In this document: positions 13,669-21,246 of the stretch, in pieces | Position numbering within the stretch: position 1 is the stretch's first letter | Layout: each line of letters begins with the position of its first letter | IMG/VR virus record: IMGVR_UViG_2534681772_000016 | Location: 1-21,246 of that record | Length of the DNA stretch: 21,246 nt | Reading direction: 5' to 3' (one strand) | DNA from: a virus | Taxonomy: Duplodnaviria > Heunggongvirae > Uroviricota > Caudoviricetes | Program-made: the position numbers and the translations under genes | The notes under the pieces: generated by a model | The model's database searches: none | What the model was told of the DNA's origin: nothing | Seen by the model: only the letters and a program-made list of their open reading frames with translations

Positions 13669-14376
13669 ATGGATTTGAACAAATTCGATGAGCCATTCAG
13701 CCCTGAAGATATCGAATGGCGAATACAGCAAAGCGGTAAAACACGCGATGGCAAAGTGTGGGCTATGGTGCTGGCTTATGTCACGAACCGGGCAATCATG
13801 AAACGCCTGGACGATGTTTGCGGCAAAGCAGGATGGCGCAATGAATACCGCGATATTCCCAACAACGGCGGAGTTGAATGCGGCATATCAATCAAGATTG
13901 ATTCCGAATGGGTAACCAAATGGGATGCTGCTGAAAACACGCAGGTAGAAGCCGTCAAAGGTGGTCGTTCCGGTGCAATGAAGCGTGCTGCCGTTCAATG
14001 GGGAATCGGTCGGTATCTGTATAACCTTGAGGAAGGTTTCGCACAAACATCTCTCGATAAAAAGCAGGGGTGGCACAGGGCAAAACTGAAGGATGGAACA
14101 GGATTTTACTGGCTTCCTCCATCGCTGCCGGGATGGGCAATCCCAGCATCAGATAACAAACCATCACCAGAAAATACCAACCAGAAATCTCCATCGGTTG
14201 ACTGCGAACAAATCCTGAAAGACTTCAGCGATTATGCGTCAACAGAAACTGACAAGAAAAAACTCATCGAGCGTTATCAGCGTGACTGGCAATTAATGGC
14301 TGGCAACGAGGAGGCGCAGGCTAAATGCGTTCAGGTAATGAACATCAGAGTTAACGAACTAAAACAGGCGGCATAA
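13669..14376 (+). CDS. Single-strand annealing protein, Rad52/Sak-like family recombinase
   Basis: The motif GGRSGAMKRAAVQWGIGRYLYNL is typical of Rad52-family annealing proteins. The gene sits immediately upstream of ssb in the recombination module. Confidence 0.65.
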   Translation: MDLNKFDEPFSPEDIEWRIQQSGKTRDGKVWAMVLAYVTNRAIMKRLDDVCGKAGWRNEYRDIPNNGGVECGISIKIDSEWVTKWDAAENTQVEAVKGGRSGAMKRAAVQWGIGRYLYNLEEGFAQTSLDKKQGWHRAKLKDGTGFYWLPPSLPGWAIPASDNKPSPENTNQKSPSVDCEQILKDFSDYASTETDKKKLIERYQRDWQLMAGNEEAQAKCVQVMNIRVNELKQAA

Positions 14377-14883
14377 ATGGCAAGCAGAGGCGTAAATAAG
14401 GTGATTATCCTTGGTCGGGTAGGACAAGACCCGGAAGTTCGATACTCACCATCAGGAACAGCGTTCGCTAACCTGACAATAGCCACGTCAGAACAATGGC
14501 GAGATAAAAATACTGGCGAGCAAAAGGAATTGACTGAATGGCATCGTGTTGCTGTATCCGGGAAACTGGCTGAGGTCGTTGGGCGGTATGTGAAAAAAGG
14601 TGATCAGATTTATTTCGAGGGAATGCTGAGAACCAGAAAGTGGAAAGACCAGTCAGGGCAAGACCGTTACACAACCGAGGTTCATGTCGGAATTAATGGC
14701 GTGATGCAAATGCTTGGCGGCATTGGCGACAGCAAACAACAAGCAGCCAGCAGGCAATCACAGAAGCCACAGCAGCAATCATCACCAGCACAACACAACG
14801 AACCTCCGATGGATTTTGACGACGATATACCCTTTGCACCAGTAACTCTCCCCTTCCCTCGTCACGCTATTCACGCAATTTAA
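14377..14883 (+). CDS. ssb: Single-stranded DNA-binding protein with a 15-aa extension beyond the DDDIPF tip
   Basis: OB-fold N-terminus [44 protein letters not shown]...; Gln/Pro-rich linker; ..[11 protein letters not shown] followed by [15 protein letters not shown]. Confidence 0.9.
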
Positions 14884-14896
14884 TCAGGAGAAAAAC

Positions 14897-15193
14897 ATGC
14901 CAGCGCCTTTGTATGGTGCGGATGACGCGCGCCGCTGTTCCGGCAATTCCGTATCGGAGGTGCTGGATAAATTCAGAAAAAACTACGATCGGATAATGTC
15001 GCTACCGCAGGAAACGAAAGAGGAAAAGGAATTTCGCCACTGTATATGGCTTGCAGAGAAAGAAGAGCGCGAGCGAATTTACCAGACATCAATCCGACCA
15101 TTCCGCAAAGCCACATATACCCACTTCTCTGAATATATCGACCCGCGCCTGCGTAATTACCGCTCACGCTATGGCGCTATCAGTAATGACTGA
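14897..15193 (+). CDS. Hypothetical protein (98 aa)
   Basis: The ORF MPAPLYGADDARRCSGNSVSEVLDKFRKNYDRIMSLPQETKEEKEF... has a GGAG RBS and lies in the accessory region after ssb. Confidence 0.5.
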   Translation: MPAPLYGADDARRCSGNSVSEVLDKFRKNYDRIMSLPQETKEEKEFRHCIWLAEKEERERIYQTSIRPFRKATYTHFSEYIDPRLRNYRSRYGAISND

Positions 15194-15203
15194 GGAATTA
15201 ACA

Positions 15204-15494
15204 ATGAAAACAATGAAGCTAAACATCGACCTCGGAAAATACGTTATTACCGGAACCAAACACGACCTGATTCTTAGCGAAAGAGGAATTATCAAAGAAG
15301 GCGAGAATGCAGGGAAAGAAACACTAAGCCGTATCGGTTATTACAGCAAGTTTGAGCATCTGGTCAAAGAGTTATGCAACCGTGAAATCCTGTTATCTCA
15401 GGCGCAGACGCTACAGGATATTCAGCAGCATATCGAGACTTTAGGTGTATCACTTAGCATGGCTATTGACCAGTTCGTGGAGAGTAAATCATGA
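15204..15494 (+). CDS. Hypothetical protein (96 aa)
   Basis: The [44 protein letters not shown]... has GAGG 8 nt upstream of the ATG. Confidence 0.5.
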
Positions 15495-15655
15495 GAGGAC
15501 TTGCATACAATCCCGGCATTCTTCCGGCAGAAATGATTATTCGCCAACGCGTAAAGCCAATGCCATCGAGAGAAGAATTGCTTAAGAGAAATTCTTTTCC
15601 ATCAGTGAATCAAAACAAATATCTGAATGCGATGTTGCGGAGTGGGAAGAAATGA
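15491..15655 (+). CDS. Hypothetical small protein (54 aa)
   Basis: The [57 protein letters not shown] overlaps both neighbouring genes by ATGA. Confidence 0.35.
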
Positions 15656-16026
15656 AACAAATGACACTAATTGAGATGGATGGATTTCTGAAAGGTAAAT
15701 GCATCCCACGAGATTTAAAGGTTAACGAAACAAACGCTGAATATCTTGTCCGTAAGTTCGGTGAACTTGAATCAAAACTCAACGAGCAGCGTGAATATTA
15801 CGAAGGTGTTATCTCTGATGGGAGTAAGCGTATAGCAGAGTTACAAAGTGGTTCTCAGGTACAAAAGTTAGTTGAAGCAATCATTGTTGCGATAGAAAAC
15901 GAACAGGAACGTCTTTTTGATGAAGATTACCTAATGGATTCGAAAGAATGCATTGACGTAATTCGTGAAGAAGTAAAGCGATGGAATGATTCCCGCGCCG
16001 CTGGCATTCGCATCAAAGGAGAGTGA
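15652..16026 (+). CDS. Hypothetical protein (124 aa)
   Basis: The [49 protein letters not shown]... is translationally coupled within the operon. Confidence 0.5.
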
Positions 16027-16027
16027 G

Positions 16028-16213
16028 ATGAAGCGAGAAATTATCAATTTCATCAATCCAGGTAACTGCTGCCCTGGTCATGACAAATACCCATGTGACA
16101 AATACAAAAATAGGCGTTCAGTTCGCCAACGCGCACTCGGTATTAAAAAAGAGCATCGACATGTGAGAAGAACCGTCCGTCAGGAATTGCTATTAAATAT
16201 TGGTGAGGACTAA
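16028..16213 (+). CDS. Hypothetical Cys-rich small basic protein (61 aa)
   Basis: The ORF MKREIINFINPGNCCPGHDKYPCDKYKNRRSVRQRALGIKKEHRHVRRTV... carries the cluster CCPGH..C. Confidence 0.4.
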   Translation: MKREIINFINPGNCCPGHDKYPCDKYKNRRSVRQRALGIKKEHRHVRRTVRQELLLNIGED

Positions 16214-16216
16214 CAC

Positions 16217-17028
16217 ATGACCACTATTACCAGAGAACAAGCTCTGAAAATTATTGAGGCAGCCGATGAGGTTATTAGTGCGCTTGCCGGAACTAACGAG
16301 GATGTTCACCCTGGTAGCGATAACATGCTACGTCTGTGGGATGACCTGAATGACCGTTACGCGCCGCCGGAAGTTGTGCGCGAACTGGCGCGGATTGCAC
16401 TGGCATCGCTGGAAGCAGAGCCGGTGGCTTATATTTTCAAACATCCGGCCGGGAAATTATTCTGGGCTTTAACGGATGAAAGCAATAAAGAGCAAGCGGA
16501 CGTTATTCCTGTTTATGCTGCCGCGCCTGCGTCGGTTGTGCCGGATAATGCATCAGAGCCTCTTGCTTATGCTTACAAAGAGCTTACGCCTGAGATTATG
16601 CGCAACCATTTAGCTGTATTCGAGCGATATGGAATAGCCCCAAACGATAGCTCTACCACAATTCAGGCACTGCGAATCGCGCTGGATGGCATAGAGCGGA
16701 GCGACGCCATGCTTCATGGTGCCGAAACTGTAAGCCAAACTTACAAGTTGCCTCCCCTGTCATCCAGCGAAGTAAACGACGCGGCATGGAAATTACACAA
16801 CATGCTGACTGAACACGGCCTGCTAAATGGGCGTCAGTTCAACAATCTGAAAGGTTGCTTCTATGAGGCATTAAAGGTCGCAATGCGCAACTATCCGGCA
16901 ACTCCGGATAGTTGGATAAGCTGTAGTGAGCGAATGCCGGATACCAAAACAGCCGTTCTTGTTGCCGTGGAGTTTGACAGGAAAGGTGACTGGCGAATGA
17001 AATGGGCGACTTACATCCCGGGGCATCC
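16217..17028 (+). pseudogene. DUF551-like phage protein, 5' portion, interrupted by IS629 after codon 270
   Basis: The ORF runs from the prophage into the IS at 17029. Its C-terminal region ..WISCSERMPDTKTAVLVAVEFDRKGDWRMKWATYIPGHP resembles the DUF551 pattern as recalled. The continuation is found in frame after the IS. Confidence 0.7.
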
Positions 17029-17082
17029 TGAACCGCCCCGGGAATCCTGGAGACTAAACTCCCTGAGAAAGAGGTAAACAGG

Positions 17083-17409
17083 ATGACTAAAAATACTCGT
17101 TTTTCCCCCGAAGTCCGTCAGAGGGCGATTCGTATGGTTCTGGAAAGTCAGGGCGAATATGACTCACAGTGGGCGGCAATTTGTTCCATTGCCCCAAAGA
17201 TTGACTGTACACCGGAGACTCTGCGTGTCTGGGTACGCCAGCATGAGCGGGATACCGGAGGCGGTGATGGCGGGCTCACCACCGCTGAACGTCAGCGTCT
17301 GAAAGAGCTGGAACGTGAAAATCGTGAACTGCGCCGCAGTAACGATATCCTTCGCCAGGCTTCCGCTTATTTTGCGAAGGCGGAGTTCGACCGCCTCTGG
17401 AAAAAGTGA
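17083..17409 (+). CDS. IS3-family transposase OrfA (HTH)
   Basis: The 108-aa product [40 protein letters not shown]... has a leucine-zipper-like C-terminus and matches IS629/IS1203-type OrfA as recalled. Confidence 0.9.
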
Positions 17410-18296
17410 TGCCACTGCTGGATAAGCTGCGTAAGCTGTACGGGGTCGGACCGGTATGCAGTGAACTACATATTGCCCCGTCAACGTATTACCACTGTCA
17501 GCAACAGCGACATCATCCTGATAAACGCAGTGCCCGTGCGCAGCGCGATGACTGGCTGAAGAAAGAGATACTGCGCGTATACGATGGGAATCATCAGGTA
17601 TACGGTGTGCGTAAAGTCTGGCGTCAGTTGTTACGGGAAGGAATCAGGGTAGCCAGATGTACAGTGGCGCGCCTCATGGCGGTTATGGGACTTGCCGGTG
17701 TTCTCCGGGGTAAAAAGGTCCGCACTACCGTCAGCCGGAAAGCCGTTGCCGCAGGCGACCGCGTAAACCGTCAGTTTGTGGCAGAACGTCCTGACCAGTT
17801 GTGGGTGGCTGATTTTACTTACGTCAGCACATGGCAGGGGGTCGTCTATGTGGCGTTCATCATTGATGTGTTTGCCGGATACATCGTGGGGTGGCGGGTC
17901 TCATCGTCTATGGAAACGACATTCGTGCTGGATGCTCTGGAGCAGGCGTTATGGGCCCGTCGACCGTCCGGCACAGTCCATCACAGTGATAAAGGTTCTC
18001 AGTATGTATCGCTGGCCTACACACAGCGGCTTAAGGAAGCCGGATTACTGGCATCAACAGGAAGTACTGGTGACTCGTATGACAACGCGATGGCGGAGAG
18101 CATCAATGGCCTTTACAAAGCGGAGGTAATACACCGTAAGAGCTGGAAAAACCGGACAGAAGTGGAGCTGGCCACACTCACGTGGGTGGACTGGTATAAC
18201 AATCGACGATTGCTGGGAAGGCTGGGCCATACTCCTCCGGCAGAAGCAGAAAAAGCTTATTATGCTTCCATCGGAAACGATGATCTGGCAGCCTGA
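17406..18296 (+). CDS. IS3-family transposase OrfB (DDE domain), normally made as an OrfAB fusion by -1 frameshifting
   Basis: The 296-aa product has ..WVADFTYV.. and ..HHSDKGSQY.. and ..[15 protein letters not shown].. (the DDE triad context). It overlaps orfA in the -1 frame at an A-rich site. Confidence 0.9.
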
Positions 18297-18341
18297 GTTC
18301 ACAGATAAAACACTCTCCAGGAAACCCGGGGCGGTTCATCC

Positions 18342-18423
18342 TGACGCTAATGATGGGTGGATAATTCCTGGTGCGTCGTGGAAACCGTCACACTGGATGC
18401 CGCTACCAGAGCCTCCACTTTGA
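18342..18423 (+). pseudogene. 3' remnant of the IS-interrupted DUF551-like gene
   Basis: Removing the IS and one copy of tcc gives a continuous ORF ending ..GHPDANDGWIIPGASWKPSHWMPLPEPPL. Confidence 0.6.
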
Positions 18424-18519
18424 AAGCGAAGCTTATACATATCTTTTACATCAGCAATCTATTGTTAATCTCCAATCAATGTTACGTTGTCATCTCACTC
18501 ATGCTTTGGAGGTAGTGAT

Positions 18520-18699
18520 ATGTCTTGTCCAAAATGCGGTTCTGGAAATATTGCAAAAGAAAAAACAATGCGTGGATGGTCTGGTGATTATGTGTGCTGC
18601 GATTGCGGATACAACGACTCTAAAGACGCATTTGGAGAGCGTGGTAAAAACGAGTTTGTTAAAATTAATAAAGAACGCGAAGGCAACGAAAAAAGCTAA
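18520..18699 (+). CDS. Hypothetical zinc-ribbon small protein (59 aa)
   Basis: The ORF MSCPKCGSGNIAKEKTMRGWSGDYVCCDCGYNDSKDAFGERGKNEF... has two CxxC pairs. GGAGG lies 8 nt upstream of the ATG. Confidence 0.5.
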   Translation: MSCPKCGSGNIAKEKTMRGWSGDYVCCDCGYNDSKDAFGERGKNEFVKINKEREGNEKS

Positions 18700-18764
18700 T
18701 TTATTTATTCATATATGAAAACAATGTAACCAATATTCGATTTGAAGAACTGAAAGAACACCAA

Positions 18765-18787
18765 GCCGCCTGATGGCGGTTTTTTAT
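18765..18787 (+). terminator. Intrinsic terminator
   Basis: The hairpin gccgcc-tgat-ggcggt is followed by ttttttatt. Confidence 0.55.
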
Positions 18788-18799
18788 TGGAGACAAGAA

Positions 18800-19144
18800 A
18801 TGTCAGATTTGGCTATGAAGGTTTTGAAATGGCAATCGACTGGCGATGTTGGCATCAGTAGCGCAACTCTTGCCTCAATCGCATGTGGACTGAAAAAGAA
18901 TATCTATGGTCATCACTTCGGCGCTCCACATGACGCAGCCGATTTCCGGCGATGCGTTGCACTTGTTGAGCAGATTCCAGAAATCAGAGATTCATTCGAC
19001 AAGGTTGCAAAGCGCGTTCCGGCATTCAAAGGCATCCTCAACGAATGGGATTCTCTCGTTGCTCTGTTGAAGTCTGAAATGAAGATACACGGAAACAAAG
19101 CACCAGAGACTTACAGAAGAATCAGCGAGCTACGCAAGGACTAA
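18800..19144 (+). CDS. Hypothetical protein (114 aa)
   Basis: The ORF MSDLAMKVLKWQSTGDVGISSATLASIACGLKKNIYGHHFGAPHDAADFRR... has a GGAGA RBS. The upstream ATG at 18773 lies inside the terminator and was not used. Confidence 0.5.
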   Translation: MSDLAMKVLKWQSTGDVGISSATLASIACGLKKNIYGHHFGAPHDAADFRRCVALVEQIPEIRDSFDKVAKRVPAFKGILNEWDSLVALLKSEMKIHGNKAPETYRRISELRKD

Positions 19145-19268
19145 CCACAGTCTCACACTCGATGAGGCCTGTTCATTTCTCAAGATATCCAGACCTACCA
19201 TTGCTGCATCAATGCGGCTTTTTATTGCCTGATTTGCAGGTTCGATTCCCTATTCGGAGATAGCACTC

Positions 19269-19469
19269 ATGCAACACGAACTACAACCTGATTCACTGGT
19301 TGATTTGAAATTCATCATGGCTGATACTGGCTTCGGTAAGACCTTCATCTATGACCGGATTAAGTCCGGCGACCTGCCAAAAGCCAAAGTTATCCACGGA
19401 CGAGCAAGATGGTTATATCGTGACCATTGTGAATTCAAAAATAAGCTCTTAAGCCGCGCCAATGGGTAA
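19269..19469 (+). CDS. torI: AlpA/Xis-family excisionase (TorI-like recombination directionality factor)
   Basis: The 66-aa product MQHELQPDSLVDLKFIMADTGFGKTFIYDRIKSGDLPKAKVIHGRARWLYRDHCEF... matches the winged-helix excisionase pattern and TorI of the KplE1 prophage as recalled. It lies adjacent to the att core. Confidence 0.7.
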   Translation: MQHELQPDSLVDLKFIMADTGFGKTFIYDRIKSGDLPKAKVIHGRARWLYRDHCEFKNKLLSRANG

Positions 19470-19542
19470 AATAGCGGGTAAAATATTTCTCACATCTAAA
19501 AAACACCATTCCAATCAATCCCCTGCCGCTTCAAGTAGATGT

Positions 19543-19557
19543 CTGCAGGGGACACCA
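19543..19557 (+). other. Prophage attachment-site core (attR-type), identical to the 3' end of tRNA-Arg (argW)
   Basis: ctgcaggggacacca equals the acceptor-stem 3' strand plus CCA of argW as recalled. The 5' part of the tRNA is absent, so this is a displaced partial copy marking the prophage-chromosome junction. Confidence 0.6.
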
Positions 19558-19998
19558 GATACCCTTCAAACGAAATCTACCTTCACCCCGTAAAAGATGG
19601 GTTTGGCAGCACACTTGCCTTATATCTACTCATTTTTACTGCAACAGGTTGAAATCTCAGCACTGTCAGAAAGCGCTGATGACTAAACAGCCCTGAGCCG
19701 GGCGATGTAACCATCACACAGAATCCTGATAGCGAAATATGGCGTGACTCGATACTTCACTCCGCAATGCATTCCTTGATGAATTCGCAGGACCGTGATA
19801 CACGGGACAGGTCACTGAATGACGACAATGTCCTGGAAACCAGCGAACCGCGCATCTGAAGTACATTTGAGCGACTGTACCAGAACATGAATGAGGCGTT
19901 TGGATTAGGCGATTATTAGCAGGGCTAAGCATTTTACTATTATTATTTTCCGGTTGAGGGATATAGAGCTATCGACAACAACCGGAAAAAGTTTACGT

Positions 19999-21246
19999 CT
20001 ATATTGCTGAAGGTACAGGCGTTTCCATAACTATTTGCTCGCGTTTTTTACTCAAGAAGAAAATGCCAAATAGCAACATCAGGCAGACAATACCCGAAAT
20101 TGCGAAGAAAACTGTCTGGTAGCCTGCGTGGTCAAAGAGTATCCCAGTCGGCGTTGAAAGCAGCACAATCCCAAGCGAACTGGCAATTTGAAAACCAATC
20201 AGAAAGATCGTCGACGACAGGCGCTTATCAAAGTTTGCCACGCTGTATTTGAAGACGGATATGACACAAAGTGGAACCTCAATGGCATGTAACAACTTCA
20301 CTAATGAAATAATCCAGGGGTTAACGAACAGCGCGCAGGAAAGGATACGCAACGCCATAATCACAACTCCGATAAGTAATGCATTTTTTGGCCCTACCCG
20401 ATTCACAAAGAAAGGAATAATCGCCATGCACAGCGCTTCGAGTACCACCTGGAATGAGTTGAGATAACCATACAGGCGCGTTCCTACATCGTGTGATTCG
20501 AATAAACCTGCATAAAAGACAGGAAAAAGTTGTTGATCAAAAATGTTATAGAAAGACCACGTCCCCACAATAAATATGACGAAAACCCAGAAGTTTCGAT
20601 CCTTGAAAACTGCGATAAAATCCTCTTTTTTTACCCCTCCCGCATCTGCCGCTACGCACTGGTGATCCTTATCTTTAAAACGCATGTTGATCATCATAAA
20701 TACAGCGCCAAATAGCGAGACCAACCAGAAGTTGATATGGGGACTGATACTAAAAAATATGCCGGCAAAGAACGCGCCAATAGCATAGCCAAAAGATCCC
20801 CAGGCGCGCGCTGTTCCATATTCGAAATGAAAATTTCGCGCCATTTTTTCGGTGAAGCTATCAAGCAAACCGCATCCCGCCAGATACCCCAAGCCAAAAA
20901 ATAGCGCCCCCAGAATTAGACCTACAGAAAAATTGCTTTGCAGTAACGGTTCATAAACGTAAATCATAAACGGTCCGGTCAAGACCAGGATGAAACTCAT
21001 ACACCAGATGAGCGGTTTCTTCAGACCGAGTTTATCCTGAACGATGCCGTAGAACATCATAAATAGAATGCTGGTAAACTGGTTGACCGAATAAAGTGTA
21101 CCTAATTCCGTCCCTGTCAACCCTAGATGTCCTTTCAGCCAAATAGCGTATAACGACCACCACAGCGACCAGGAAATAAAAAAGAGAAATGAGTAACTGG
21201 ATGCAAAACGATAGTACGCATTTCTGAATGGAATATTCAGTGCCAT
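19999..21246 (-). CDS. cscB: Sucrose permease CscB-like (LacY-family oligosaccharide:H+ symporter, MFS); chromosomal flank
   Basis: The 415-aa product MALNIPFRNAYYRFASSYSFLFFISWSLWWSLYAIWLKGH... has 12 predicted hydrophobic segments and matches CscB as recalled. Its start codon is the last codon of the window. Confidence 0.85.
   Translation of the reverse strand: MALNIPFRNAYYRFASSYSFLFFISWSLWWSLYAIWLKGHLGLTGTELGTLYSVNQFTSILFMMFYGIVQDKLGLKKPLIWCMSFILVLTGPFMIYVYEPLLQSNFSVGLILGALFFGLGYLAGCGLLDSFTEKMARNFHFEYGTARAWGSFGYAIGAFFAGIFFSISPHINFWLVSLFGAVFMMINMRFKDKDHQCVAADAGGVKKEDFIAVFKDRNFWVFVIFIVGTWSFYNIFDQQLFPVFYAGLFESHDVGTRLYGYLNSFQVVLEALCMAIIPFFVNRVGPKNALLIGVVIMALRILSCALFVNPWIISLVKLLHAIEVPLCVISVFKYSVANFDKRLSSTIFLIGFQIASSLGIVLLSTPTGILFDHAGYQTVFFAISGIVCLMLLFGIFFLSKKREQIVMETPVPSAI

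Follow-up and report, generated by a model that had tools for sequence, protein, structure and literature searches.

We analysed a 21,246 nt stretch of phage DNA (referred to below as the window), which comprises positions 1 to 21,246 of the IMG/VR record IMGVR_UViG_2534681772_000016 (Caudoviricetes), and concentrated on five small open reading frames (ORFs), O1 to O5, that lie between the gene for a phage single-stranded DNA (ssDNA)-binding protein (SSB) and a gene encoding a DUF551 domain. A first-pass annotation, made from the letters of the sequence, had described five consecutive ORFs of these sizes in this interval, joined by ATGA overlaps or short gaps and situated in the early-left accessory region of a lambdoid phage. 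The description was confirmed in its coordinates and strand (Table 1): the genes are co-oriented and tightly packed, as is usual in that region, with ATGA overlaps at the O2/O3 and O3/O4 junctions and gaps of 13 nt between ssb and O1, 10 nt between O1 and O2, 1 nt between O4 and O5, and 3 nt between O5 and the DUF551 gene.

Table 1. Genes and other features at the locus (window coordinates).
Feature	Position	Strand	Remarks
O1, abc2	14897-15193	+	98 aa
O2, DUF5405 protein	15204-15494	+	96 aa
O3, DUF2737 protein, homologue of P22 orf56	15491-15655	+	54 aa, basic, pI 11
O4, short acidic coiled-coil protein with Ea22/Ead-family modules	15652-16026	+	124 aa
O5, basic CCPGHD-motif protein, phrog_5428	16028-16213	+	61 aa
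Rad52/Rad22-type single-strand annealing protein; opens the recombination module	13669-14376	+	PF04098, E 5e-26
Phage SSB	14377-14883	+	PF00436, E 5e-36; start abuts the annealase stop codon
DUF551-domain gene, 3' end lost to insertion sequence (IS)	16217-17028	+	PF04448, E 3.7e-9
IS3-family element, IS629-like, 1310 bp	17029-18338	+	TCC target duplication; breakpoints mapped against TW10590

The DNA of window 14897-16213 is 100% identical in a prophage of Escherichia coli TW10590 (NZ_CP035850.1), where RefSeq calls all five genes and names them, in order, phage anti-RecBCD protein, DUF5405, DUF2737, hypothetical and hypothetical. Each start is preceded, 6-8 nt upstream, by a Shine-Dalgarno-like GGAG or GAGG that can be read from the sequence, and each of the five proteins matched a PHROG family (E ≤ 1e-28). 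Pairwise ratios of non-synonymous to synonymous substitution (dN/dS) were low, which shows purifying selection: 0.039/0.151 for O1 against P22 abc2, 0.18/2.0 (∼0.09) for O3 against P22 orf56, and 0.057/1.03 (∼0.06) for O5 against its homologue in a Kuravirus. The low ratios and the PHROG matches together indicate that O1 to O5 are genuine genes. The smallest of them, chiefly O3 and O5, are so short that they might be taken for chance ORFs in intergenic DNA; that reading appears effectively refuted by the pattern of conservation, since O3 matches the Pfam profile PF10930 (DUF2737) with 110.5 bits against a cutoff of 25, O5 matches phrog_5428 (E 1.3e-30) and has homologues with 60-70% identity in unrelated phage families, and both combine low dN/dS with a Shine-Dalgarno sequence.

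O1 aligned along residues 1-98 to positions 1-97 of the 97 in the Pfam profile PF11043 (Anti-RecBCD_p2; 204.4 bits, cutoff 25, E 2.4e-61), matched phrog_656 (‘abc2 anti-RecBCD’), and matched the P22 Abc2 chain of the PDB structures 8B1T/8B1U (8b1t_A) across residues 1-98 (E 1.3e-55). O1 and P22 Abc2 share 93% identity, with only three substitutions in residues 1-66, and P68, which is invariant in four Abc2 proteins diverging to 61%, is present in O1. On the strength of these alignments we identify O1 as Abc2, anti-RecBCD protein 2. The first-pass annotation had placed the ORFs where P22 has its abc anti-RecBCD genes, and in this it was exactly right, because O1 is abc2 itself. Its statement that none of the five matches a recognisable family does not hold: O1 belongs to PF11043, O2 to PF17399 (DUF5405) and O3 to PF10930, and the RefSeq names agree. 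It had also reckoned a match to a known characterised family as evidence against its own proposal, and Abc2 is such a family.

In cryo-EM structures, residues 3-66 of P22 Abc2 contact RecC, and Pro68, by which the host protein PpiB is recruited, sits in the PpiB active site; the binding site of Abc2 on RecC lies in the Chi-recognition (‘inactivated helicase’) domains, close to the latch helix and to the alternative exit for ssDNA, and with isolated RecBCD the core activities are little changed by Abc2 (PMC9836394). In Murphy's model, which is a proposal, RecBCD loses its sensitivity to Chi through Abc2, and the ssDNA product passes to the phage annealase and not to RecA (PMC9836394). From the 93% identity to the P22 protein we infer that O1 binds RecC and alters the response of RecBCD to Chi. 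This allele would then act like P22 Abc2, alongside the products of the two genes before it, the Rad52-type annealase and SSB: RecBCD would be made unresponsive to Chi and its ssDNA redirected to the phage annealase, a step that is a proposal even for P22. There are no Chi sites in the 21 kb, where 0.47 would be expected, a difference that is uninformative about Abc2 activity.

Together with the genes for the Rad52-type annealase and the SSB, the O1 gene, which comes last, makes up a recombination module. The annealase matched phrog_1097 (‘Erf-like ssDNA annealing protein’, E 3.5e-130) and its RefSeq name is Rad52/Rad22 family DNA repair protein. In the identical RefSeq prophage of TW10590, the interval from the repressor gene to the annealase gene contains no annotated exonuclease gene. 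The combination of annealase, SSB and Abc2 without a phage exonuclease is a canonical lambdoid recombination module; HK620 carries sak4-ssb-abc2 (PMC5928155), and modules of annealase, SSB and anti-RecBCD protein have been described in a survey of 325 lambdoid phages (PMC12315714).

The next gene, O2, scored 25.4 bits against PF17399 (cutoff 21.6) and is named DUF5405 family protein in RefSeq. The start chosen by RefSeq/PGAP, at 15213 (93 aa), lies nine bases later than ours, at the Met with which most homologues begin; the ATG at 15204 is the O2 start that has a ribosome-binding site, GAGGA, at the usual distance. The AlphaFold2 (AF2) model of O2 is confident (pLDDT 89) and has a sheet of four strands with a helical hairpin after it. 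A fold search of BFVD with this model returned DUF5405 proteins first, and in all only DUF5405 and unnamed phage proteins, of which some come from Bacillus, Cellulophaga and Lactobacillus phages. The name ‘replication initiation protein’, which is attached to DUF5405 in PHROG 154 and in some RefSeq phage records, was supported neither by the sequence searches nor by the fold searches, and looks like a propagated name without evidence. At loci that lack DUF5405, abc2 runs directly into the DUF2737 gene via the same TGAGGAATTTACCATG junction, as it does in P22, and DUF5405 is therefore a cassette that was inserted cleanly where one gene ends and the next begins. O3 is 77% identical to the product of P22 orf56, the gene immediately 3' of abc2 in that phage. 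Literature searches found no functional study of DUF5405, DUF2737 or orf56. NCBIfam gave no match for any of O1 to O5, sequence searches of the PDB gave no significant match for O2 to O5, and no PADLOC model of a known defence system was matched by any of six proteins at E ≤ 0.01.

Comparison with characterised phages places the locus in a familiar context. Just after the annealase module, the window shares gene order and orientation with P22 (NC_002371), which is arranged erf-abc1-abc2-orf56-eaE...eaA-xis-int, and in both, abc2 and orf56 are followed by variable ‘ea’ genes that end in a gene of the DUF550/DUF551 type. The two differ in that P22 has Erf and Abc1 whereas the window has a Rad52-type annealase and SSB, in the extra DUF5405 cassette of the window, and in the replacement of P22 eaE, orf45, eaF, eaD and eaI by the Ea22-like mosaic O4 and the CCPGHD protein O5. 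The same abc2-DUF5405-DUF2737 triplet is found in Shigella phage Sf6 (genes 25-24-23), E. coli phage HK446 and Salmonella phage ES18 (gp46-45-44). The DNA of Sf6 and HK446 is 96.7-97% identical to the window over 14897-15639 or beyond; ES18 has the same gene order, with an Abc2 that is 74% identical. All three diverge from the window inside O4 and are without O5.

O4 is similar to lambda Ea22 and P22 EaD in its place, between the recombination genes and xis, in a coiled-coil segment and in an EaD-like tail. A 26-aa coiled-coil stretch is 92% identical to residues 77-102 of lambda Ea22, and the C-terminal AAGIRIKGE resembles the C-terminus of P22 EaD. The protein matched phrog_614 (E 7e-28); its match to PF13935 (Ead_Ea22) covered residues 29-65 only and, at 22 bits, fell under the cutoff of 27. 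At the DNA level, the first ∼60 codons (15652-15840) are 97% identical to genes of other E. coli prophages that carry the annotation ead/Ea22-like, DUF551-domain or YfdS-family, and the block encoding the C-terminus is likewise common to genes annotated as ead/Ea22-like, DUF551 or YfdS. Of 5426 complete E. coli genomes, 1305 contain the final 180-200 nt of O4, with different genes following. On these alignments O4 is a short mosaic of Ea22/Ead-family pieces. We also noticed that its N-terminal block behaves as a shared N-terminal module, or recombination linker, to which C-terminal domains of different kinds are attached.

Lambda Ea22 is built of a short N-terminal domain, a coiled coil and a dimeric C-terminal domain that has been solved by NMR (PMC10834534), and a pro-lysogenic effect of ea22 has been reported (PMC7093339, PMC10834534). 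O4 is shorter than Ea22 (124 aa as against 182 aa), and BLASTP revealed no similarity between the two beyond the 26-aa segment, the C-terminal domain included. Because O4 shows no similarity to that domain, we do not carry the pro-lysogenic function over to it. A relationship of O4 to P22 EaE was considered and ruled out, as the two have no similarity.

O5 is a basic protein (pI 10.0) with no Pfam, NCBIfam or PDB match. Alignments of its family define a core of CCPGHD, then Y..RRS, then an Arg-rich helix. The first-pass annotation had called one ORF Cys-rich and basic, with a motif CCPGH..C; the basic character and the CCPGHD motif stand, and ‘Cys-rich’ is overstated for a protein with three Cys residues, of which only the CC pair is conserved. 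The AF2 model is poor (pLDDT 62), showing the C-terminal helix only and leaving the motif region unmodelled. Homologues, typically 60-70% identical, occur in 145 phage records, mostly of virulent phages. The homologue in Felixounavirus directly follows the DNA ligase gene, that in Kuttervirus lies between the primase-helicase and ligase genes, and one Kuravirus has a homologue with 90% identity; others are found in a Morganella phage, in Stenotrophomonas phage DLP6 and in T4-like phages. In several Felixounavirus records the O5 match lies under a feature annotated as DNA ligase, and in LinBro a separate gene is called that starts at the ligase stop. The relatives lie among early and DNA-metabolism genes, with neighbours that vary from case to case; the O5-family loci that we compared (L082 2501-2689, L083 2501-2701, L084 4001-4183 and L090-L094) had no constant neighbour.

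In an exhaustive profile search with O5, only 75 of 1.84 billion cluster representatives matched, and almost all were stand-alone proteins of 55-70 aa; a Pfam scan of the ten longest members of the CCPGHD family disclosed no Pfam domain and thus no informative fusions. Among the 5426 complete E. coli genomes, O5 DNA is present in one, that of TW10590. The family appears to move between temperate and virulent phages, and is much commoner in virulent phages than in E. coli prophages. We considered whether O5 represents an undescribed family of small basic proteins (∼60 aa), with a near-invariant CCPGHD, that bind metal together with nucleic acid or a host factor, serve as a portable host-takeover or counter-defence factor, and were recently acquired by this prophage. 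The last element is suggested by the single carrier among the complete E. coli genomes; the binding of metal, nucleic acid or a host factor would be a guess from composition and motif alone, and we regard the proposal in its entirety as unlikely.

Because the five genes are so closely spaced, the first-pass annotation had suggested that they form a functional unit. Such a unit would serve host takeover or anti-defence, as a complex or a pathway, with translational coupling as its consequence, and it would fit the location of the five in an accessory region beside recombination genes, on one strand, with ATGA overlaps and gaps of 1-13 nt. Comparison across related prophages, which that annotation had itself proposed as a check, went against the suggestion. 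We assembled 80 IMG/VR loci encoding an Abc2 at least 97% identical to O1 and searched them with the window proteins; depending on the comparison, 78 or 71 loci served as the denominator. DUF5405 was adjacent to abc2 in just 17 of 78. The first 29-35% of O4, and only that part, was present in 52/71, whereas a nearly full-length O4 (≥ 80% coverage) was found in two of the 71, at ∼45% identity; O4 is, moreover, itself a mosaic. O5 was found in none of the 71, is absent from 5425 of the 5426 complete E. coli genomes, and has its relatives in unrelated contexts in virulent phages. The genes thus assort independently. Nor is the close spacing particular to the five, because flanking genes are packed equally tightly: on one side ssb starts directly at the annealase stop, and on the other a mere 3 nt separate O5 from the DUF551 gene. 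We therefore consider a five-gene unit very improbable.

The pair formed by abc2 and the DUF2737 gene deserves separate consideration. With or without DUF5405, the two might constitute a functional module in which the DUF2737 protein serves as a cofactor of Abc2, comparable to Abc1 or Arf. DUF2737 lay downstream of abc2 in all 78 loci with enough downstream DNA, the adjacency is kept in P22, ES18, UAB_Phi20 and JEP4 (Abc2 61-93% identical to O1), and DUF5405, when present, is inserted without splitting the shared ribosome-binding-site context. The numbers of phage database records with full-length proteins are also nearly equal, at 223 for DUF2737 and 225 for Abc2. However, the C-terminal 30-residue core of DUF2737 (residues 23-54) occurs by itself in ∼475 further phage records, including Jerseyvirus and Kagunavirus siphoviruses, and neither these nor the other organism groups with the core only were represented among 230 Abc2 matches. 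In JEP4 (positions 2501-2972 of the stretch compared), moreover, Abc2 is 61% identical to O1, whereas DUF2737 is 98% identical to O3, and over its final 18 residues Abc2 does not differ from O1. This pattern implies a mosaic recombination junction inside abc2, between the RecC-binding part and the C-terminal tail, and argues that the 3' end of abc2 and the DUF2737 gene behave as a conserved block of DNA and not as co-evolving partners. Finally, the complex of Abc2 with RecBCD forms on co-expression without other P22 proteins (PMC9836394). A two-gene module therefore seems to us distinctly unlikely, if less so than a unit of all five.

We conclude, with a probability of roughly 0.88, that window 14897-16213 belongs to the early-left (PL) operon of a P22-like, lambdoid E. 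coli prophage and is an ordinary part of it, composed of abc2 and four independent accessory genes. The whole region would be read as one long PL transcript, and O2 to O5 would each be an accessory gene, independent of the others, in the variable ‘ea’ (exo-xis) region; their short gaps and ATGA overlaps would reflect how genes are normally packed in a lambdoid PL operon, and would not be the mark of a five-protein machine. On the + strand of 14897-16213, a scan for promoters and terminators detected nothing that resembles a promoter or a strong terminator, and this absence of internal signals fits read-through transcription from PL. Three considerations weigh against this conclusion. The 80 loci are the closest relatives by Abc2 and represent a narrow clade, to which only four more distant cases, P22, ES18, UAB_Phi20 and JEP4, were added by hand. 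The term ‘independent accessory genes’, as applied to O2, O3 and O5, derives from how these genes are distributed and not from what they do. And the invariable adjacency of abc2 and DUF2737 leaves room for a functional link between those two genes.

Beyond O5, the DUF551 gene is identical to that of TW10590 up to window position 17031, where it diverges into the IS element. Rfam and tRNA scans found nothing in 14897-16213; their sole match was an ALIL frameshift pseudoknot within the element (17364-17480). In TW10590 the DUF551 gene is intact (297 aa) and an IS3-family element lies instead inside the 5' end of ssb, at about 14230-15480 of the TW10590 stretch compared (L001). The prophage copies in the window and in TW10590, otherwise identical, thus differ by IS position. 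Beyond the DUF551 gene (window about 18340-21246; L001 18311-21037) there follow an Eag-like gene, a hypothetical gene and a TorI-type excisionase gene, after which come the host csc/dsd genes. No integrase gene stands beside the excisionase gene; the same layout, with excisionase and integrase at opposite ends of the prophage, occurs in KplE1/CPS-53 at the argW locus.

The stretch is already known, in that RefSeq carries the whole block with the same family names and the lead gene encodes a RecBCD-hijacking protein of solved structure, and the present analysis has little importance beyond correct annotation. What it clarifies is that the apparent five-gene operon is, in all probability, a piece of the PL operon, in which one gene of the recombination module is followed by four accessory genes that are shuffled independently. 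Two of the families represented here, DUF2737 and the CCPGHD proteins, are small, conserved and uncharacterised, and may be reasonable candidates for screens of anti-defence or host-takeover functions.

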